DNA of 32,000 nucleotides. Origin: Dubosiella newyorkensis. GTDB lineage: Bacteria > Bacillota_I > Bacilli_A > Erysipelotrichales > Erysipelotrichaceae. The DNA lies in NCBI RefSeq assembly GCF_001945605.1, contig NZ_MPKA01000086.1, positions 1 through 32,000 on the forward strand. Reading direction: 5' to 3'. Shown in pieces: positions 5,606 through 15,823 of this stretch. Position 1 is the stretch's first letter; each line of letters begins with the position of its first letter. The translations under genes were made by a program, and so were the position numbers. The notes below the pieces were generated by a model, which made no database searches, had not been told where the DNA came from, and saw nothing but the letters and a program-made list of their open reading frames with translations.

Positions 5606-7117
5606 ATGGCAAAATTTTTCAAAGAACCATCTAGAACATTTAGCGAATACTTGCTTGTGCCAGGCTATTCTGGACCCGATTGTACACCCGACAACGTCTC
5701 ATTGAAAACGCCTTTGGTCAAATTCAAAAAAGGAGAAGAACCCGCTTTATCTTTAAATATTCCTATGGTTTCCGCTGTCATGCAGGCTGTCAGTGGCGAA
5801 GAAATGGCTTGCGCCCTTTCTAGAGAAGGGGGAGTCAGCTTTATTTATGGCTCGCAGCCAATTGAAAGCCAAGCGGAAATGGTCCGAAATGTAAAAGCGT
5901 CGAAAGCAGGATTTGTCGGCAGTGATTCAAACCTTTCTTTGGATAGCACGCTTGCCGATGTTCTCGCTTTGAAAAAGAAAACGGGTCACTCGACGATGGC
6001 CGTGACAGATACAGGAAAAAGAGATGGAAAGCTTGTGGGGTTGGTCACTTCGCGCGATTTCCGCGAATCTCGTATGGATAAGAACACCAAAGTCAAAGAT
6101 TTCATGACCGCGTTCGACAAGCTGATCGTTGGAAAGGATGGCATCTCTCTTTCTGAAGCCAACGATATCATTTGGGAACATAAACTCAATCAGCTTCCTA
6201 TCGTCGATGAGAATCAGCGCTTAAAAGCGTTCGTGTTCCGTAAAGACTATGATTCCCATAAAGAAAATCCAAATGAGCTTTTGGATGAAAACAAGCGCTA
6301 TATCGTTGGAGCCGGAATCAATACAAGAGACTACGCTCAACGCGTTCCAGCCCTTGTGGAAGCAGGCGTCGATGTACTCGTGATCGACTCTTCCGAAGGT
6401 TATTCCTGCTGGCAAAAAGATACGATCCAATGGGTGCGCGAACATTATGGCGACAGTGTGAAGATCGGCGCAGGAAATGTCGTCGATGGCGATGGATTCC
6501 GCTTCTTGGCCGAGGCAGGTGCGGATTTTATCAAAGTCGGGATCGGTGGAGGCTCGATCTGCATCACCCGCGAACAAAAAGGAATCGGTCGTGGACAAGC
6601 GACAGCGACCCTCGATGTAGCTAACGCGCGCGATGAGTATTTCAAAAATACCGGAATCTATATTCCGATTTGTTCGGATGGCGGGATCGTACACGATTAC
6701 CATATCACTCTCGCTTTAGCCTTCGGAGCCGATTTCGTTATGTTAGGTCGTTATTTTGCACGTTTTAAAGAAGCGCCAAACAAACGCGTGAGCATCAATG
6801 GAAACTATATGAAAGAGTATTGGGGCGAAGGTTCTGCCAGAGCGCGTAACTGGCAACGTTATGATGTTGGTGGAGAAGGAAAGATGTCTTTTGTCGAAGG
6901 TGTCGATTCGTTTGTACCTTACGCTGGGTCGCTTCGAGACAATGTCGCTTTGACCTTATCGAAGATCAAACATACGATGTGCAACTGCGGATGCTTGACG
7001 ATACCAGAACTTCAACGAGATGCCAAAGTCACGCTCGTTTCTTCAACAAGTATCGTCGAAGGCGGGGCTCACGATGTGGTTGTCCGGGATGAAAATGTGG
7101 ATGCTAAAGTTCAGTAA
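5606..7117 (+). CDS. guaB: Inosine-5'-monophosphate dehydrogenase
   Basis: The catalytic loop is [23 protein letters not shown], and a CBS-pair insert is present (STMAVTD...LVGLVTSRD). The C-terminal sequence is [18 protein letters not shown]...[11 protein letters not shown]. Length is 503 aa. Confidence 0.95.
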
Positions 7118-7144
7118 AAGAAGGGTCGCCTTCTTTTCTTTTTG
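7117..7144 (+). terminator. Intrinsic terminator after guaB
   Basis: A stem (AAAGAAGG at 7117-7124 with CCTTCTTT at 7129-7136) has a GTCG loop and is followed by a T-rich tract, TCTTTTTG. It abuts or overlaps the first possible start codons of the next ORF. Confidence 0.7.
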
Positions 7145-8266
7145 ATGATGAAACAAGAACACGCGCATAAAAGCGATATCATGATGGATATCAGCATCTT
7201 GTATCGAAACACCCAAAAGTATTTCGACCGCAAGCTCGAACCATTGAAACTGACATACGCCCAGCTTCCCGTTTTATTCGCAATTTATGAAGAAGAAGGG
7301 ATCTCGATGCAGCGCATCGTCGAAAATGGCCAATACGATAAAGGGACCGTTACCAAGAACGTGCAAAAGCTCGAAAATCTAGGCTATATCAAAACTGTGC
7401 CCTCGAAAGTAGATAAACGTCTAAAGCATCTATATCCAACCAATGCGTGCGCGCAAATCATGCCGACCATATATCAAATGCGGGCTGATTGGTGGACTAA
7501 GGTCACAACAAGCATGGATAGAGAACAACTAGATGTTTTTCAAAACACATATTCTCTTTTGAGTGCCAATGTCAGCGCGTTTGCGGCTTGGAAACTCGAT
7601 GAATTTCGATTTTATGATTTAGATCCTTTATGTGTTGGTCATGAACCAGGAAAACTGAGCGCTTGTCTCTATACAGCTGGATGTAATCTTCGTTGCCCAG
7701 ATTGTCCAAGAAAAGATCTAGTCTATCTCAAAGAATCCAAAACACCTCTAAAAATGGAAAAAGTCAGCGCGTTTTTAGAGGAGAGAAAACACTTTTTATC
7801 AGCGCTTTGCATTCAAGGAGGCGAAGCGTGCTTGAATCCAGAACTCTCACATTTCTTTATCTATGTCAAACAGATGGGGTATACGATCATTTTAAAAACC
7901 AATGGAACGAAGCCAAAGGTTTTGAAGCAATGGATCGAAGAAAACGCAGTGGATAGAATCTGGTTCAACTTTAAAAGCCCCCCTCGACTCTACGCGAAAA
8001 AAACAGGGATGGACTTCTTTGACTTCTCGCTGATCGAACAAACATTGCAGATCCTGAAAACGATCCCGGATCGTACGGTCGTTGAAACAAGGCTTGCGCT
8101 TGATCTGTTTGAAGGCGGACTTGAAGAGATGGCGGGCTATCTTGATAAATCGTTCAAATGGATATGGCATGTTGATACATCGCTCCAAAACGAAACGATT
8201 CTCGTAGAAAAAGAGCGCTGTCAACACTATGTGAAAGAAATAGAGATCCGATATGCAAATACTTAA
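7142..8266 (+). CDS. Fusion protein: N-terminal MarR-family winged-helix domain plus C-terminal NrdG-like (class III RNR activase type) radical-SAM domain
   Basis: Residues ~14-150 look like MarR (LTYAQLPVLFAIYEEEGISMQRIVENGQYDKGTVTKNVQKLENLGYIKTVPSKVDKRLKHLYPT). Residues ~160-374 resemble the NrdG2-type activase: a CxxxCxxC motif (CNLRCPDC, nt 7682-7705), a GGE motif (IQGGEACL) and ILKTNGTKPKVL. The reading frame is continuous with no internal stop. The start is uncertain (TTG 7142, ATG 7145/7148, or ATG 7178/7181), and no candidate has a convincing SD. Confidence 0.8.
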   Translation: MMMKQEHAHKSDIMMDISILYRNTQKYFDRKLEPLKLTYAQLPVLFAIYEEEGISMQRIVENGQYDKGTVTKNVQKLENLGYIKTVPSKVDKRLKHLYPTNACAQIMPTIYQMRADWWTKVTTSMDREQLDVFQNTYSLLSANVSAFAAWKLDEFRFYDLDPLCVGHEPGKLSACLYTAGCNLRCPDCPRKDLVYLKESKTPLKMEKVSAFLEERKHFLSALCIQGGEACLNPELSHFFIYVKQMGYTIILKTNGTKPKVLKQWIEENAVDRIWFNFKSPPRLYAKKTGMDFFDFSLIEQTLQILKTIPDRTVVETRLALDLFEGGLEEMAGYLDKSFKWIWHVDTSLQNETILVEKERCQHYVKEIEIRYANT

Positions 8267-9467
8267 AGTCGAAAAAAGAGATGGGACGTTCGTCGATTTT
8301 GATCTAAAGAAGATCATCGCCGCAATCGAAAAAGCGTTTCAATCTCAAAACACGATCCAAGATCCTCAAATTATCGAACTTTTAGCTTTAAAAGTGAGCG
8401 CCGACTTCAAAAACAAGATCGAAGATGGCTATATTCAAGTCGAACAGATCCAAGATAGCGTGGAAAGCGTTTTAGCCCAAAGCGGATATGTGCAAGAAGC
8501 CAAAGCGTTCATCTTATATCGTGTTCAACGCACGAATGTCCGGAAACTTTCTTCTGAGAGAATCGAAGGCACATCGATGGATCTAGAAAGTTTGAAACAA
8601 AAGATCGTCGCCTCTTATGTGAGCCGTTTTTGGAGCAATGATATTTTTGATGCTTCCATACGAGAGGCTATGGAAAATAAAGCATTCGAATTTATCGATG
8701 ACAACGATCTAAAGCTAGGCAAGCTGTCCCTTTCTTTAGGAAAACACTTCGCCACGGATTCGATCGAAACATGCATCGACTGGATCGCCTCCCTATCTAA
8801 AGAATGGTCCGCTATCGACTTGTATGATCTTGAATCGGTGATTCATTTAAATGATGATCTAAAGAACTTGCTGTTAGTACTAGAAAACCTAGATTGTTGT
8901 TTTTCGATCGTTCTCGAAGAAAAAGAATGGATCTCAAAAATAGAAGAGATCAGCGAACGGATCGAGTGGAGATGGAAAACGTCGAGAGAAGCCATTTGCG
9001 AAATCGGACAAACTACAAAAATGACGCCGATCTATTCGATCGATCAAGAAAAAGAAATCGTCTGTGCTTCTTTATGGTTGAAGGATACGAATCAAATCGA
9101 ACTGGCTCAACGAGCTTTGATCACGAAAAAAGAAGTTTTTGAGCAGCTGTATCGAACCGGCTTTTATCCGAAAACGAAGCAATTGCTCAAGGATACCTTT
9201 GATCCCGTTTGTCAAATCTTTTCAGAAGAGATCCAGAACCAGCCTCTTCAAAACAAAAAGATCCATGTGATTTACCGCAAAGATTTCCATGAAAGCGATC
9301 TTTTTTTGATCCTACATTCCTTAGAGCAGATTCAGGTGCCTTCGATCTTGCGTTTTTATACGGATCTTGTCGATATCGATCCTGACGCTATCGAAGTTCT
9401 CCTTAAAAAAATTGGGGAAAGCGTGAATCAACCATTAAAATTTCAACTTTTTTTAAAAAAGTGTTGA
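8253..9467 (+). CDS. ATP-cone domain protein with an uncharacterised ~310-aa C-terminal region (no recognisable reductase or glycyl-radical motifs)
   Basis: Residues 1-~92 are a typical ATP-cone (ILKVEKRDGTFVDFDLKKIIAAIEKAF ... VEQIQDSVESVLAQSGYVQEAKAFILYRVQR), as found at the N-terminus of NrdD, NrdA and NrdR. I could not assign the rest of the protein to a family by eye. The gene overlaps the upstream ORF by 14 nt, which suggests translational coupling. Confidence 0.75.
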   Translation: MQILKVEKRDGTFVDFDLKKIIAAIEKAFQSQNTIQDPQIIELLALKVSADFKNKIEDGYIQVEQIQDSVESVLAQSGYVQEAKAFILYRVQRTNVRKLSSERIEGTSMDLESLKQKIVASYVSRFWSNDIFDASIREAMENKAFEFIDDNDLKLGKLSLSLGKHFATDSIETCIDWIASLSKEWSAIDLYDLESVIHLNDDLKNLLLVLENLDCCFSIVLEEKEWISKIEEISERIEWRWKTSREAICEIGQTTKMTPIYSIDQEKEIVCASLWLKDTNQIELAQRALITKKEVFEQLYRTGFYPKTKQLLKDTFDPVCQIFSEEIQNQPLQNKKIHVIYRKDFHESDLFLILHSLEQIQVPSILRFYTDLVDIDPDAIEVLLKKIGESVNQPLKFQLFLKKC

Positions 9468-9492
9468 AAATCGATTCTCTGTTTGCTATTAT
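9464..9492 (+). promoter_or_regulatory. Sigma-A type promoter for tRNA-Leu (TTGAAA-17-TATTAT)
   Basis: The -35 is TTGAAA at 9464-9469, overlapping the stop codon of the upstream ORF. The -10 is TATTAT at 9487-9492 with 17-nt spacing. The tRNA starts about 30 nt downstream. Confidence 0.6.
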
Positions 9493-9521
9493 GAATAGGC
9501 AATCAACGAACAGAGATTCAT

Positions 9522-9608
9522 GCCCGGGTGGTGAAATTGGTAGACGCAGTGGACTCAAAATCCACCGGTAGCGATACCGTACCGGTTCGAGTCCGGTCCT
9601 GGGCACCA
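9522..9608 (+). tRNA. tRNA-Leu (anticodon CAA), class II with long variable arm and encoded CCA
   Basis: The acceptor stem GCCCGGG pairs with CCTGGGC. The anticodon stem GTGGA/TCCAC carries the loop CT-CAA-AA. A long variable arm (GGTAGCGATACCGTACC) and a T-arm (CCGGTTCGAGTCCGG) are present, followed by a 3' ACCA. Confidence 0.93.
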
Positions 9609-9620
9609 TTTGCAATCATC

Positions 9621-9647
9621 AAGCAGCCGAGCTGCTTGTTTTTTTTT
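9621..9647 (+). terminator. Intrinsic terminator after tRNA-Leu
   Basis: The stem AAGCAGC (9621-9627) pairs with GCTGCTT (9631-9637) around a CGA loop, followed by G and then T x9. Confidence 0.8.
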
Positions 9648-9666
9648 ATAAAATTAGGAGGAAAGC

Positions 9667-10833
9667 ATGAAAGTCTTATTAGGGTTGAGCGGCGGGGTCG
9701 ACTCTGCCATAGCTGCGTATCTTTTACAAAAGCAAGGATATGACGTAACTTGCTGTTTTATGCGAAATTGGGATAGTTTTGCCAACAACGATATTTTAGG
9801 GAATCCATTGATCCAATCGGATATTTGTCCTCAAGAACAAGACTATCTCGACGCCAAAGCGGTCGCAGAACATCTAGGCTTGACTTTAGATCGAGTCGAT
9901 TTTATCGAAGACTACTGGAATAAAGTCTTTTTGACATTTTTAGAAGAATATAAAAAAGGAAGAACGCCCAATCCTGATATTTTATGCAATCAATACATTA
10001 AATTCGACGCTTTTTTCCAATACGCGATGGATCATGGGTACGATATGGTTGCTACCGGGCATTATGCGAGCACTCAACAAAAAGATGGCTTTACCTATCT
10101 TGCACGGGCAGCCGACACAAATAAAGATCAAACGTATTTTTTATGCCAAGTAGCGCCGGAAGCGATCGCTAAAACGCTCTTTCCCCTTGGCAATATCACA
10201 AAGTCGGAAGTCCGCAAGCTCGCCGAAGAGCTTGATCTAGAAAGCGTGATGAAGAAAAAAGACAGCACCGGGATCTGCTTTATTGGCGAGCGGAACTTTC
10301 GAGAATTCTTGAGCAACTATTTGCCATCCAAACCTGGAGAAATCATCGATATCAACACCGGAAAAATTGTCGGAGAACATATAGGTGTATTGTATTATAC
10401 GATCGGACAGCGCAAAGGACTTCACATCGATCACGAAAAAGGCCCATGGTTCGTGATCGGCAAAGATGTAGAAACGAATCGTCTATTTGTCACGCACCAT
10501 ACGCAAAAACAATGGCTTTCTTCCGATCAAGCGCTTATCAAAAACATCAACTGGATCGTCGAGGATAAAACATCGATCCCGCAAGAGCTTACATGCAAGT
10601 TTCGATATCGCCAAAAAGATCAAGACGTAAAACTCAAGTGGATCACGAACGACAGCGTGCTGCTTTCTTACCCTCAAGGAATCGAGGGCGTCACGGAAGG
10701 GCAAGAAGCCGTCCTTTATGATGGCGAGCTGTGTCTTGGAGGAGGCGTGATCGATGTCGTATATAAAGAAGGGAAAATCCTTCACGATACGATCTTGCAG
10801 CGTTATGAGGAATTGAGACATGGGCGAGACTAA
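9667..10833 (+). CDS. mnmA: tRNA 2-thiouridine(34) synthase (tRNA-specific 2-thiouridylase)
   Basis: A PP-loop (LGLSGGVDSAIAAYLL) is present, with catalytic cysteine contexts (CCFMRNWD, TPNPDILCN, DSTGICFIGE) and DQTYFL. The SD AGGAGG lies at 9656-9661. Confidence 0.95.
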   Translation: MKVLLGLSGGVDSAIAAYLLQKQGYDVTCCFMRNWDSFANNDILGNPLIQSDICPQEQDYLDAKAVAEHLGLTLDRVDFIEDYWNKVFLTFLEEYKKGRTPNPDILCNQYIKFDAFFQYAMDHGYDMVATGHYASTQQKDGFTYLARAADTNKDQTYFLCQVAPEAIAKTLFPLGNITKSEVRKLAEELDLESVMKKKDSTGICFIGERNFREFLSNYLPSKPGEIIDINTGKIVGEHIGVLYYTIGQRKGLHIDHEKGPWFVIGKDVETNRLFVTHHTQKQWLSSDQALIKNINWIVEDKTSIPQELTCKFRYRQKDQDVKLKWITNDSVLLSYPQGIEGVTEGQEAVLYDGELCLGGGVIDVVYKEGKILHDTILQRYEELRHGRD

Positions 10834-12974: not shown

Positions 12975-13181
12975 AGTTTGACAATGAAAAAGAGGAGTAG
13001 AAGATCAGATCTTTGCAGAGACAAGGTGGCTGGTGAAAACCTTGAAGATCTTTTTTTTGAAGGCTGCTTTGGAGTTGAACCGCTCTTCGCGTTATCGAAG
13101 AATCAAGCGCATTCTTTATTGAAGAATGAATTAGGATGGTACCGCGTGATCAACGTTCCTAAATTTAGGGACGTTTTTTTT
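12975..13181 (+). promoter_or_regulatory. T-box riboswitch (Ala specifier) controlling alaS
   Basis: Stem I elements are present: an AGTA S-turn (GGAGTAGAAG), an AGAGA bulge and a distal GGTGAAAAC loop. The specifier loop reads GAAG-GCT-G (GCU at 13063-13065, with a second GCT at 13066-13068). The conserved T-box sequence AATTAGGATGGTACCGCG lies at ~13129-13146 and contains UGGU, complementary to the ACCA end of tRNA-Ala. A terminator follows (AACGTTCCTAAATTTAGGGACGTT plus T x8, 13152-13181), immediately before the alaS SD GGGAGGAG. Confidence 0.88.
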
Positions 13182-13195
13182 ATGGGAGGAGAACA

Positions 13196-15823
13196 ATGAA
13201 ACAATTAACAGGAAATCAAGTTCGACAAATGTTTTTGGATTATTTCGCGTCCAAAGGACATATGATCGAACCTGGCGCGAGCTTGATCCCAGACAATGAT
13301 CCAACGCTTTTATGGATCAATGCTGGAGTCGCGGCTCTTAAAAAGTATTTTGATGGTTCGCAAAAACCACGCTGTAATCGGATCGCCAACGCGCAGAAAA
13401 GTATCCGCACCAACGATATTGAAAATGTCGGAAAAACAGCAAGACACCATACGTTTTTCGAAATGCTCGGAAACTTTTCGATCGGTGATTATTTCAAAGA
13501 AGAAGCGATCCCATTCGCTTGGGAATTTTTGACTAGCGAAGAATGGATGGGCATCGATAAAGATCGTCTTTATGTTTCTGTCTATACAGATGATGAAGAC
13601 GCTTATCGGATCTGGACAGAAGTATGCAAAGTTGATCCTAGCCATATTCTGAAAACAGATGAGAACTTTTGGGAAATCGGAAAAGGTCCAGGAGGCCCGG
13701 ATTCAGAAATATTCTTCGATCGTGGCGAAAAATACGATCCAGAACACTTAGGAGAACGGCTCTTTTTTGAAGAGCTAGAGAACGATCGTTATGTCGAAGT
13801 GTGGAATGTCGTATTCTCGCAATTCAACTGCGATCCTGCGATCGACCGCAAAGAATATAAAGAACTTCCACAAAAAAACATCGATACAGGGATGGGATTG
13901 GAACGTTTGGTCGCTCTTATACAAGATGGAGAGACGAACTTTGATACAGATCTTTTCTTGCCAATCATCCACGCAACCGAGAAATACGCCAAATACCCTT
14001 ATGAAGGAGAATATAAAATGGCTTATCGGGTCATCGCCGATCACATCCGAACGATTGTATTCGCTTTAAGCGATGGCGCCAATTTCTCCAACAGCGGACG
14101 AGGCTATGTACTGCGCCGTGTGCTTAGAAGAGCGGCTCGTTATGGATTGAAGCTCGGGATCGATGAACCATTCCTCTATAAGCTTGTTCCCGTTGTCAAC
14201 GAGGTAATGAAAGATTTCTATCCATATTTGCAAGAACATACTTCGATGAACGAGAAGCTCATCAAAAATGAAGAGGAAACATTTAAAAAGACATTGAAGG
14301 TGGGCCAATCGATGCTTGATGAAGAGATCAAGAACGCAAAAGATGGCAAACTTGGTGGAGATGTCGTCTTCACTTTGTACGATACATATGGCTTCCCATT
14401 CGAGTTGACACAAGAAATCGCCGAAGAAAACGGATTGACAATCTCGCGCCAAGAATTCGACGCCCACATGCAAGAACAAAAAGAAAGAGCGCGGAACGCA
14501 CGAAATACGAAAGATTCATTCAACGCGCAAAACGAAGCTTTGATGAATTTTACGACACCTTCTGAATTTGTCGGTTATGATACGCTTGCTTGTCCTGGAC
14601 AAGTGATTGCTCTATTCAAAGAAGGAGAAATGGTTGATTCCCTGCAAGGAGAAGGAGAAGTGATCTTTGATCAAACTTGCTTCTATGCAGAAAGCGGCGG
14701 ACAAGTCGCGGATACAGGTGTGATCGAAAATGAAGAAGTCAAAGCGGATGTCGTCGATGTTCAAAAAACACGCAACTCGCAGCACTTATTGAAAGTTATT
14801 GTCCAAGAGGGGACATTGCATACGGGAGATATTCTCGAACAAAAAGTCGACGCGAAGCGCCGCATGAAGACGACAGCCAATCACTCCTGCACCCATTTGC
14901 TTCAAAGTGCTTTGAAAAAAGTGCTCGGCGAGCATATCCAGCAAGCTGGAAGCTTTGTCGGGCCTGATTATTTGCGCTTTGATTTCCGTCATTTTGAAAA
15001 GATCACACCAGAACAGCTTCATGAAGTCGAAGCGATCGTCAATAGCTATATCGAAAACGCATATCCAGTCACGAAAGAGATCATGGCGATCGAGGACGCG
15101 AAAAAATCGGGAGCTACCGCGCTATTCAACGAAAAATATGGAGATACGGTCCGCGTCGTAACAATGGGGGATGCTTCGAAAGAGTTTTGTGCTGGTACCC
15201 ATGTCAACAACACTTCGGCTATTGGTGTCTGCAAGATCATTGGCGAAGAATCGATCGGTTCCGATTCGAGACGGATCAGCGCGAAGACAGGATTTGCCGC
15301 TTATCAAGAGTTTGCCAACGAGCACCAGCAATTAGAAACGATCGCGGACGCTTTAAAACAGAAGAGCATCAAAGAGATCGATCAAAAGGTGATCTCAACG
15401 ATGGATTCATACAAGGAACTTCAAAAAGAAGCTGAAAAGATGAACAATCAAATCTTGTCTTTGAAATCCAACGAATGGATCAAAGATCAAGAAGAGATCA
15501 ACGGCTTCCATGTATTGATCAAAGCGATCAAAAACCTAGATGGGAAAGAGATGAAAGAAATCGCGACCGATCTCAAAGGCAAGGACGCGAATTTGATTGT
15601 CTTCTTCTACGCGATCAACAACGATAAAGTCGTCTTTGTTTCTGGTGTCGGAAAAGAAGCGATCGCCAAAAAAGCGAATGCTGGCACGCTTGTCAAATCG
15701 GCGGCCCAGATCTGCAAAGGAAATGGTGGTGGAAAGCCGGATCTAGCACAAGCAGGTGGTAAAGACGCTTCCATGATTCAAGAAGCGATCGATTTTGTGA
15801 AAGCAAGTATTCAATCTTTATAG
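13196..15823 (+). CDS. alaS: Alanine--tRNA ligase
   Basis: Class II AARS motifs are present (FFEMLGNFSIGDYFK, DTGMGLERL), along with the editing-domain HxxxH...CxxxH pattern (HSCTHLL...CAGTHV) and a C-terminal DHHA1-like GGGKPDLAQAGG. Length is 875 aa. Confidence 0.97.
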   Translation: MKQLTGNQVRQMFLDYFASKGHMIEPGASLIPDNDPTLLWINAGVAALKKYFDGSQKPRCNRIANAQKSIRTNDIENVGKTARHHTFFEMLGNFSIGDYFKEEAIPFAWEFLTSEEWMGIDKDRLYVSVYTDDEDAYRIWTEVCKVDPSHILKTDENFWEIGKGPGGPDSEIFFDRGEKYDPEHLGERLFFEELENDRYVEVWNVVFSQFNCDPAIDRKEYKELPQKNIDTGMGLERLVALIQDGETNFDTDLFLPIIHATEKYAKYPYEGEYKMAYRVIADHIRTIVFALSDGANFSNSGRGYVLRRVLRRAARYGLKLGIDEPFLYKLVPVVNEVMKDFYPYLQEHTSMNEKLIKNEEETFKKTLKVGQSMLDEEIKNAKDGKLGGDVVFTLYDTYGFPFELTQEIAEENGLTISRQEFDAHMQEQKERARNARNTKDSFNAQNEALMNFTTPSEFVGYDTLACPGQVIALFKEGEMVDSLQGEGEVIFDQTCFYAESGGQVADTGVIENEEVKADVVDVQKTRNSQHLLKVIVQEGTLHTGDILEQKVDAKRRMKTTANHSCTHLLQSALKKVLGEHIQQAGSFVGPDYLRFDFRHFEKITPEQLHEVEAIVNSYIENAYPVTKEIMAIEDAKKSGATALFNEKYGDTVRVVTMGDASKEFCAGTHVNNTSAIGVCKIIGEESIGSDSRRISAKTGFAAYQEFANEHQQLETIADALKQKSIKEIDQKVISTMDSYKELQKEAEKMNNQILSLKSNEWIKDQEEINGFHVLIKAIKNLDGKEMKEIATDLKGKDANLIVFFYAINNDKVVFVSGVGKEAIAKKANAGTLVKSAAQICKGNGGGKPDLAQAGGKDASMIQEAIDFVKASIQSL

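Follow-up and report, generated by a model that had tools for sequence, protein, structure and literature searches.

A degenerate nrdG-nrdD operon in Dubosiella newyorkensis encoding a MarR::NrdG-like fusion and a shrunken ATP-cone protein with a possible regulatory role

NrdR, a repressor of nrd operons, consists of a Zn ribbon plus an ATP-cone. The two-gene module of Dubosiella newyorkensis described here (ORF1 and ORF2) resembles NrdR in pairing an ATP-cone with a DNA-binding module in an RNR-gene setting and, if the role proposed below is correct, in a logic by which the ATP/dATP state would be passed on to DNA binding. It differs from NrdR in that the DNA-binding module is the MarR winged helix of a second protein, whereas in NrdR the Zn ribbon and the cone share one chain. 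The operator of the module's relatives is TAGTTG-N6-CAACTA rather than NrdR boxes, and outside the cone there is no sequence relationship to NrdR. The second described system is the class III reductase NrdD with its activase NrdG (P. copri NrdD, PDB 8P23; phage T4 NrdD). ORF2 occupies the nrdD slot and retains the cone, the N-terminal core and one internal helix, ORF1 contains an NrdG2-type radical-SAM domain with a CX3CX2C motif, and the two genes are translationally coupled. However, ORF2 is devoid of the finger-loop Cys, the beta-A Cys, HxHD, most of the barrel, the Zn ribbon and the glycyl-radical domain of NrdD, and ORF1 departs from NrdG in its extra MarR domain and in scoring under the NrdG2 cut-off.

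Further parallels concern the DNA-binding half. With the MarR-family autoregulators (MarR, SlyA, MepR, OhrR), ORF1 shares the complete MarR protomer fold, and the operons of its relatives have a palindromic operator that overlaps their transcribed leader; what sets ORF1 apart from these regulators is its fusion to a radical-SAM activase domain, and Dubosiella lacks the autoregulatory box. Trigger enzymes and pseudoenzyme regulators (PutA, BirA, NadR) belong to different protein families and are alike in principle only: in class A relatives (see below) the activase is fused to a DNA-binding domain that would control its own pathway, and of the degenerate forms it is apparently the regulatory half alone that is still essential. 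TIGR04472, the MarR regulator of the 'radical SAM mobile pair', is also a MarR protein associated with radical-SAM genes but is a separate, unfused gene, and membership of ORF1 in this family was rejected (23 bits against a cut-off of 240). No publication on a MarR-NrdG fusion, on an ATP-cone combined with MarR or on a pseudo-NrdD came up in a literature search.

In the window, i.e., the whole 32,000-nt stretch of DNA that was analyzed, all features discussed here lie on the + strand. Upstream of the module and outside it lies guaB (IMP dehydrogenase, 5606..7117, a 503-aa ORF), whose syntenic counterparts in relatives are called with the IMPDH Pfam domain. ORF1 (7142..8266, 374 aa from TTG 7142, with ATG 7145 or ATG 7181 as alternatives, either of which may be the true start) and ORF2 (8253..9467, 404 aa) overlap by 14 nt, in agreement with the original prediction, which was made from the sequence of this stretch alone. 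The gap between the ORF2 stop and tRNA-Leu(CAA), first given as 55 nt, is 54 nt. A promoter-like site (9464-9492) and the tRNA (9522-9608; joint entry 9464..9608) mark the downstream boundary, and the tRNA neighbor is kept in most loci with the short form of NrdD to which ORF2 belongs. The supposed guaB terminator exists as a hairpin (7116..7137), but a weak one with only 3 G-C pairs and a T-run that reaches into the ORF1 start; in relatives, an equivalent hairpin is followed by an extended -10 element ~7 nt before the ATG of ORF1. With this terminator in between, the suggestion of a target linked to guaB comes down to conserved synteny. GATC is over-represented 4.4-fold in the whole window, 6.7-fold in ORF2 and 2.7-fold in ORF1, which supports the resident status that had been proposed for the pair. 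The identical 404-aa ORF2 protein is found on 16 independent contigs and thus is no assembly artefact. A search of Rfam yielded no RNA element relevant to the ORF1-ORF2 locus.

ORF1 joins the two domains that had been read from its sequence, a MarR winged helix and an NrdG2-type radical-SAM domain (Pfam and TIGR profile matches; AF2 model with pLDDT 90.5 and pTM 0.73). The MarR part (aa 13-148, 7178..7585) forms a complete protomer including the dimerisation helices. It matches MarR_2 (PF12802, aa 37-93, E 6.7e-12, 45.8 bits, cut-off 27) and PF01047 (35.2 bits, cut-off 24.6), and Foldseek aligns it to MarR and SlyA structures with target-normalised TM values of 0.8-0.9. Its recognition-helix motif DKGTVTKN (aa 66-73, 7337..7360) is conserved in all classes, and D66, K67, G68, T69, T71, and K72 are invariant in an alignment of 20 family sequences. 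The radical-SAM domain (aa 159-371, 7616..8254) is of the glycyl-radical-enzyme activase type, as indicated by PF04055 (E 9.9e-9), by the Foldseek match to the PFL-activating enzyme 3c8f/3cb8 (TM 0.72) and by TIGR02495 (NrdG2). The last match covers profile positions 4-152 of 193 and remains, at 102.9 bits, under the cut-off of 131.15. The domain has the [4Fe-4S]-binding CX3CX2C motif CNLRCPDC (aa 181-188, 7682..7705), which is invariant in a family alignment, as well as the SAM-binding GGE (GGEA) and TNG.

ORF2 begins with an ATP-cone (aa 5-94, 8265..8534), its sole significant domain match (PF03477, E 3.7e-22, 79.1 bits, cut-off 25.8). In P. copri NrdD, nucleotides are bound by Lys7, Arg8, Tyr83, Arg87, and Arg91 (PMC11226230). 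These residues align to K8, R9, Y89, R93, and R97 of ORF2, which are invariant within the family. With its ligand residues intact, the ORF2 cone is a predicted nucleotide binder. The original prediction had been right about the cone and about the missing glycyl-radical motif and Zn ribbon, but it had recognized nothing of NrdD in the remainder, where collinear similarity is in fact retained. The linker and first core helix of NrdD persist at aa 98-164 (8544..8744; hhalign of ORF2 1-164 to NrdD 1-183, E 1e-41 to 1e-52), and aa 121-140 are modeled with a pLDDT of 68-78. A second remnant, the helix ELAQRAL..K.EV..QL...GFYP (aa 279-314, 9087..9194), aligns to NrdD 429-464 (hhalign probability 88.6%, E 2.6e-6), with which BLASTP agrees. 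The segment between them (aa 165-278, 8745..9086) evolves fast and stands in for ~245 aa of the NrdD barrel, among them the finger loop; it shows 9-27% identity between species and a pLDDT <50, and no homologues of it were found beyond the species. The C-terminal segment (aa 315-404, 9195..9464) stops where the glycyl-radical domain would start. Within it, aa 376-396 are collinear with NrdD 608-626, a suggestive alignment that does not reach significance (E about 0.08).

The catalytic parts of NrdD are gone from ORF2. Substitutions have removed the HxHD motif and the beta-A Cys (HIHD to EFID, GYCAGW to LGKLSL), and there is no match to NRDD PF13597, i.e., the barrel is not recognized. The thiyl cysteine of the NrdD finger loop resides in an MGCR or MCCR motif (PMC9669993), the canonical relatives read VRSMCCRLRLDL in this loop, and the entire region is absent from ORF2. 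Proteins of classes A and B contain the glycyl-radical motif SRITGYYRP and a C..C/H...CxxC Zn ribbon; in ORF2, RxxGY and the Zn ribbon are missing and the protein ends before that domain. Because finger loop, most of the barrel, Zn ribbon, and glycyl-radical domain are lost, ORF2 cannot reduce ribonucleotides, and the module lacks a reductase as had been claimed. A Zn ribbon fused N-terminally to the cone, as in NrdR, is absent as well, since ORF2 opens with the cone and has no CxxC pairs. By its position ORF2 is a descendant of NrdD; by its sequence it is not a functional member of that family.

Alternatively, the ORF2 tail might be a newly acquired, unrelated domain with a function of its own that became fused to an ATP-cone. 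Such an origin would suit the lack of any Pfam or NCBIfam match to aa 100-404, the selection acting on the tail (see below) and a single-sequence search against 1.84 billion proteins, which returns a fragment of ORF2 as its sole match. The same search speaks against ORF2 being a member of another known family, a possibility raised along with the original prediction, as the tail matches none; a match to CTD9 was rejected (E 0.024, below cut-off). However, the NrdD-collinear remnants at aa 98-164, 279-314 and, suggestively, 376-396, the location of ORF2 in the syntenic nrdD slot, and the existence of intermediate forms in classes B and C render a new domain very improbable. Structure prediction, which had been proposed for this region, was run with AF2, but the model (mean pLDDT 51.8) has a tail <50 that is unfit for a fold search.

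The order pullulanase-guaB-MarR::rSAM-[NrdD slot] is conserved among relatives, in which the slot beside nrdG holds a full-length, 675-aa ATP-cone plus NRDD protein in the position orthologous to ORF2. This supports the descent from nrdG and nrdD that the original prediction had put forward. Among loci from species genomes, 60 of 65 encode the MarR::NrdG fusion, which is thus conserved and no product of an assembly or frameshift error, and, with the single exception of L059, these fusions have an NrdD homolog directly behind them. Throughout the Erysipelotrichaceae, the operon normally consists of MarR::NrdG and a following NrdD, also in lineages with a fully canonical, glutaredoxin-fused NrdD. 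Hence, the activase-first order and the MarR fusion, which had been taken as signs of repurposing, both predate the loss and are normal for the family. ORF1-ORF2 is the Dubosiella ortholog of this family-wide nrdG-nrdD operon, whose activase bears an N-terminal MarR domain.

The downstream proteins form a graded motif series from class A to class D. The short forms constitute a single clade within class B, whereas class C has a separate origin. The first loss, in the large clade that contains Dubosiella, was that of the thiyl-cysteine finger loop of NrdD. The Dubosiella sub-clade then also shed the Zn ribbon, the glycyl-radical domain, and the greater part of the barrel, which left ORF2 with the ATP-cone, two NrdD helices (the first core helix and an internal one), and filler that evolves fast. 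The NrdD losses proceeded stepwise and more than once. A relocated catalytic Cys in the Holdemanella-type (L/C)CGSMG motif was considered and rejected because this position varies in class B (C, M, T, Q). Some sister lineages are without the radical-SAM cysteines too, with CX3CX2C missing from several class B lineages, and still keep the pair. Taken together, the nrdG-nrdD origin of the module and its loss of reductase function are almost certain. Hundreds of database entries named 'anaerobic ribonucleoside-triphosphate reductase' (class B and C proteins) cannot be reductases, which bears on the metabolic reconstruction of gut Erysipelotrichaceae.

The degenerate state of ORF2 raises the question of whether the pair is a decaying nrdGD remnant, i.e., pseudogenes that are still undisrupted. 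Across short-form species, ORF1 is only 40-58% and ORF2 33-50% identical, compared to 91-95% for guaB; the identity of the middle of the tail is near random, the tail is modeled with low pLDDT, and translation signals are weak in the window. Selection was measured on close pairs of relatives, as the variation within D. newyorkensis is too small, and is purifying in every region: dN/dS ranges from 0.01 to 0.2 across all forms, and constraint is strongest on the MarR domain and the ATP-cone. For the pair L008/L073, dN/dS is 0.01 in guaB, 0.04 in the MarR domain, 0.09 in the radical-SAM domain, 0.01 in the cone, and 0.14 in the tail, and ORF2 is free of indels. From aa 161 to the C-terminus, the middle segment included, close pairs show values of 0.14-0.2, and the doubly inactivated pair L027/L032 falls at 0.02-0.08. 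Moreover, the reading frames are intact in six lineages despite saturated dS, and the cone retains 91% identity in comparisons in which that of the tail falls to 9-19%. The ORF2 tail has an open frame, compared with 10-22 stops in each of the other five, and the probability that an unconstrained 307-codon frame stays open is about 6e-10. Decay, which had been named as the outcome that would undo the original prediction, is thereby close to refuted, and it is very probable that both genes are maintained by selection. Purifying selection combined with the loss of catalytic parts indicates that the pair is neither a reductase nor a pseudogene.

The best explanation as a whole is that ORF1-ORF2 is a degenerate nrdG-nrdD operon that is kept by selection and serves a regulatory role, for which we estimate a probability of roughly 0.6. 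The pair would now act as a non-catalytic regulatory module, in which the ATP-cone protein reports the ATP/dATP state to a MarR::NrdG-like dimer whose Fe-S cluster may supply a redox or oxygen input. The nucleotide state might then alter the binding of the dimer to DNA sites elsewhere in the genome in an NrdR-like role. Speaking against the putative contact between the two proteins, ORF2 has lost the glycyl-radical domain, to which activases normally bind. This specific mechanism, from sensing by the cone to DNA binding by the fusion, is plausible, with chances slightly short of even. If the explanation is true, the family presents a clear natural series from an essential radical enzyme and its activase to selected pseudoenzymes, with the intermediates in living genera.

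Counting against the regulatory explanation, CX3CX2C, GGE, and TNG are retained in all six short-form lineages, an observation that an active radical-SAM enzyme with an unlinked substrate would explain at least as well as a sensor. ORF1 might still be a working NrdG whose substrate, a canonical NrdD or a different glycyl-radical enzyme, is encoded at another place in the genome. ORF2 would then be a decoy, a leftover that the cell can dispense with, or an accessory subunit that senses ATP/dATP. This scenario partly overlaps with the regulatory explanation. The motifs persist despite the 40-58% identity of ORF1 and are lost in sister lineages, the radical-SAM domain is constrained (dN/dS 0.09), and its confidently predicted fold resembles that of PFL-activating enzyme. 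In addition, an anaerobe requires some RNR, and none is encoded within the window; a cognate NrdD with a glycyl-radical domain is found neither adjacent to ORF1 nor anywhere in these 32 kb. On the NrdG2 model, class A and C partners score 197-224 bits (class A fused activases 210-224) and even the cysteine-less Absicoccus protein reaches 134 bits, compared to 103 bits for ORF1, and this drop argues against a conventional activase. Furthermore, doubly inactivated pairs in relatives are under equal constraint, and activase activity is thus not required for a pair to be kept. In a homolog search with the canonical NrdD core, all matches listed were relatives from other genera with an identity of 84% or more. 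A metagenome scan gave 80 canonical loci; Dubosiella-bearing samples contributed none of them, its GATC signature was seen in none, and a literature search on other RNRs in Dubosiella found nothing. On balance, we consider a working NrdG unlikely, although it is a more serious contender than decay or a newly acquired domain.

The regulatory explanation gains a molecular handle from the operator TAGTTG-N6-CAACTA, which occurs 37 times in 1.54 Mb of examined DNA, 36 times just upstream of a MarR gene; the distance to the MarR gene is 50-133 nt for 32 of 33 operator matches. In a hold-out set, 4 of 4 matches lie at -53/-54 of fusions, and none occurs in 75 loci with unfused or undetected NrdG. 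The operator is present in class A relatives and in some class B and C relatives. We strongly infer that the MarR domain of the relatives' operon autoregulates through this site, which lies between promoter and start codon. With at most one mismatch, the operator is absent from the 32-kb window and from the upstream region of every short-form operon, which counts against the regulatory explanation; the sole match in the window, with 2 mismatches (9774-9791, inside the downstream ORF 9667-10833), is at chance level and was rejected. More broadly, the Erysipelotrichaceae may possess an undescribed two-protein transcription factor, in which a MarR::NrdG(-like) protein binds TAGTTG-N6-CAACTA and an ATP-cone NrdD(-like) partner conveys ATP/dATP. 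Catalysis would have been stripped from it in several lineages including Dubosiella, making it an analogue of NrdR descended from an enzyme that had once been under its control; we offer this proposal tentatively and hold it to be somewhat less probable than the sensing mechanism itself. The undescribed MarR::NrdG fusion with its well-supported operator provides a testable model for the control of class III RNR expression in a major gut family. The same TAGTTG-N6-CAACTA box is also associated with stand-alone MarR homologues, which precede MATE efflux genes.

The window derives from Dubosiella newyorkensis, the species under which NCBI names a 99%-identical protein. The pair consists of ORF1 (7142-8266, 374 aa), a gene fusing MarR to an NrdG-like domain, and ORF2 (8253-9467, 404 aa), an ATP-cone gene. 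They overlap by 14 nt and are flanked by guaB (5606-7117) upstream and tRNA-Leu(CAA) (9522-9608) downstream; both ORFs are real and, small corrections aside, were correctly described in the original prediction. MarR models match ORF1 at aa 37-93, and Radical_SAM and the NrdG2 equivalog TIGR02495 match at aa 159-307, the latter with 102.9 bits, under its cut-off of 131. The CX3CX2C motif is intact (CNLRCPDC), and entire MarR protomers and pyruvate formate-lyase activating enzyme both superpose on the confident AF2 model (pLDDT 90.5). Gene callers start ORF1 at ATG 7145 or 7148 (373 or 372 aa), and the start may also be ATG 7181 (MMDISILYR), 3' of a weak TTGATG-18-CATAAA element (7142-7183). ORF2 carries the ATP-cone ascribed to it (aa 5-94, E 3.7e-22), a domain-model search of the whole protein yielded no other significant match, and its AF2 model is confident for the cone and two helices only. 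Sixteen independent contigs carry the identical 404-aa protein.

The proposed origin of the pair from nrdDG is settled by synteny: relatives have pullulanase-guaB-MarR::rSAM followed by a 675-aa ATP-cone and NRDD protein in the slot of ORF2. A scan for the ORF1 family with one genome per species gave 65 loci, nearly all in named Erysipelotrichaceae (a few MAG titles bear other names). The MarR::NrdG fusion is present in 60/65, with an NrdD homolog directly 3' in all of these except L059. Hence, activase-first order and MarR fusion, previously offered in support of repurposing, are lineage norms. Unfused NrdG lies upstream of many canonical NrdDs in the same group. All parts belong to known families, and the module derives from a known operon. 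At L059 (7010-9685), two MgtC-like membrane proteins follow the fusion. At L005 (7122-7330), the tRNA-Leu 3' of the short NrdD is inverted relative to the window, L007, L008 and L014, which indicates a local rearrangement.

Class III RNRs are marked by a finger-loop Cys (MGCR/MCCR), a beta-A Cys and an HxHD motif (PMC9669993, PMC11226230). Alignment of the downstream proteins to one canonical NrdD resolves four states. Class A (735-802 aa; Kandleria, Bulleidia, ruminant and gut MAGs) has lost nothing and keeps GYCAGW, the MCCR finger loop, the Zn ribbon, SRITGYYRP and a C-terminal glutaredoxin-like domain. Class B (649-682 aa; Holdemanella, Faecalitalea, Floccifex, Absicoccus, Catenisphaera, Faecalicoccus, Faecalibaculum) retains the Zn ribbon and the R.(A/S)GYY glycyl motif, the finger loop being deleted or replaced. 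Class C (628-647 aa; Solobacterium MAGs, Massilicoli) keeps the barrel and has lost the finger-loop Cys and the glycyl-radical domain. Class D, the short forms (373-404 aa; the window, D. muris, strains M10-2 and OPF54, two metagenome lineages), keeps the cone, the first core helix and one internal helix, and has lost most of the barrel, the Zn ribbon and the glycyl-radical domain. According to profile-profile alignment, class D is collinear with NrdD: ORF2 aa 1-164 correspond to NrdD 1-183 (E 1e-41 to 1e-52) and aa 279-314 to NrdD 429-464 (88.6% probability), while a possible alignment of aa 376-396 with NrdD 608-626, just N-terminal to the glycyl-radical domain, is not significant. In the fused-activase tree, class D forms a single clade inside class B, with Faecalibaculum as its sister, and class C and Massilicoli fall among class A lineages; thus, at least two or three degeneration events took place. 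The glutaredoxin-like domain (PF00462, CPxC), found C-terminal to the glycyl-radical domain in L038, L060, other class A loci and P0059-P0177, amounts to a built-in reductant of canonical Erysipelotrichaceae NrdDs. The class C gene of the L058 MAG (8144-10064) is broken over three frames, reflecting a frameshift or assembly error.

Both genes are constrained despite low identity. Between short-form species, guaB is 91-95% identical, ORF1 40-58% and ORF2 33-50%, the cone reaching 56-91% and the middle tail 9-27%; within D. newyorkensis there are few differences. For L008/L073 (dS ~0.6-0.9), Nei-Gojobori dN/dS is 0.01 for guaB, 0.04 for the MarR domain, 0.09 for the rSAM domain, 0.01 for the ATP-cone, 0.09 for the ORF2 N-segment and 0.14 for the ORF2 tail, and no ORF2 indels separate the two loci. 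Tail dN/dS is ~0.2 in the L005/L009/L075 group. The 307-codon tail is open, with 10-22 stops in each of the other five frames (chance if unconstrained ~6e-10). The low dN/dS, indel-free L008/L073 ORF2 and open tail frame reject a pseudogene reading for the clade.

Radical-SAM cysteines have likewise disappeared in several class B lineages (for example Absicoccus SNFRCPFD, L017 SNFRSPFD), and GGE is gone in Faecalitalea. At L017, L024, L027, L031, L032 and L035, two to three cysteines are missing (aligned to window aa 176-193), and the NrdD-like partners keep R.AGYY and the Zn ribbon. These pairs show purifying selection on both genes equal to that on canonical pairs; in the doubly inactivated L027/L032 comparison, dN/dS is 0.05 for MarR, 0.08 for the rSAM-like domain, 0.02 for the cone and 0.05 for the rest. 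The MarR domain and cone are the slowest-evolving parts in every degenerate class, and in class A, rates are similar across all parts. Furthermore, the TIGR02495 score falls from 210-224 bits in class A fused activases to 197 in class C, 161 in Holdemanella (class B), 134 in Absicoccus (class B, cysteines lost), 120-133 in class D relatives and 103 in the window, which speaks against ORF1 still being an ordinary activase. According to the main rival explanation, ORF1 may have kept SAM cleavage and serve an unlinked NrdD or a different glycyl-radical enzyme, since CX3CX2C, GGE and TNG are all retained in 6/6 class D lineages.

TAGTTG-N6-CAACTA is a highly specific candidate operator of the MarR domain. 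Allowing ≤1 mismatch, it matches 33 times in 979 kb of locus sequence, and 32 of these matches precede the MarR gene by 50-133 nt, 3' of the promoter and 5' of the ribosome-binding site. A second, independent set (564 kb), assembled around canonical NrdDs, contains 4 matches, all at -53/-54 of a fusion and covering 4/5 fused loci, and none occurs at the 75 loci with unfused or undetected NrdG. The box was found neither upstream of any class D, Holdemanella-type or class C Solobacterium operon nor in the 32-kb window; the target there is thus elsewhere or changed. The recognition helix DKGT(V/I/T)TK is kept family-wide. Stand-alone MarR homologues (159-183 aa) preceded by the box and followed by MATE-type efflux transporters (L068 5474-5537; L071 and L072 6859-6876) point to a likely source of the fused domain.

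In P. copri NrdD, ATP/dATP is bound by Lys7, Arg8, Tyr83, Arg87 and Arg91 (PMC11226230); the ORF2 counterparts K8, R9, Y89, R93 and R97 are invariant in the short family. In class A, MarR::NrdG would most likely repress its own operon at the box besides activating NrdD. With catalysis gone, the parts that selection still keeps are the domains for DNA and Fe-S binding and the ATP-cone protein. Read most simply, they would form a two-protein regulator in which ORF2 would sense ATP/dATP and modulate DNA binding by an ORF1 dimer, and the ORF1 Fe-S cluster may supply redox or oxygen input. This would work like NrdR, although the pair is not a member of the NrdR family. The doubly inactivated pairs, constraint pattern, operator, recognition helix, cone ligands and falling TIGR02495 score favour a non-catalytic role; the regulatory sensor originally hypothesized is plausible and strengthened, but unproven. 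Activases normally bind the glycyl-radical domain; its loss from ORF2 and the missing box are weak points of the regulator model.

In class D relatives, an extended -10 (for example TGTGTAAAAT) lies ~7 nt before the ORF1 ATG, directly 3' of the guaB terminator (L005 4819-4861; L008 6929-6965; L014 6938-6985; L007 4702-4745). This implies an own promoter and suggests leaderless or near-leaderless transcripts; equivalent signals in the window are weak.

No published description of the architecture was found: the searchable literature yielded no MarR::NrdG fusion, operator of such a fusion or retained catalytically inactive NrdD/NrdG pairs. ORF2 is publicly annotated as 'ATP cone domain-containing protein'. 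Contrary to the motif analysis, source annotations label at least some class B/C-like proteins as ribonucleoside triphosphate reductases.

GATC is 4.4-fold over-represented in the window (524 observed vs 119.5 expected), 6.7-fold in ORF2 and, much lower, 1.4-fold in guaB. TCGA is enriched 2.9-fold and GTAC depleted to 0.28-fold (1-32000), an unusual genome-wide tetranucleotide signature. The window begins with a 23S rRNA 3' end (1-86) and 5S rRNA (179-292), and a T-box leader (12975-13163, 123.9 bits) precedes an 875-aa ORF (13196-15823).
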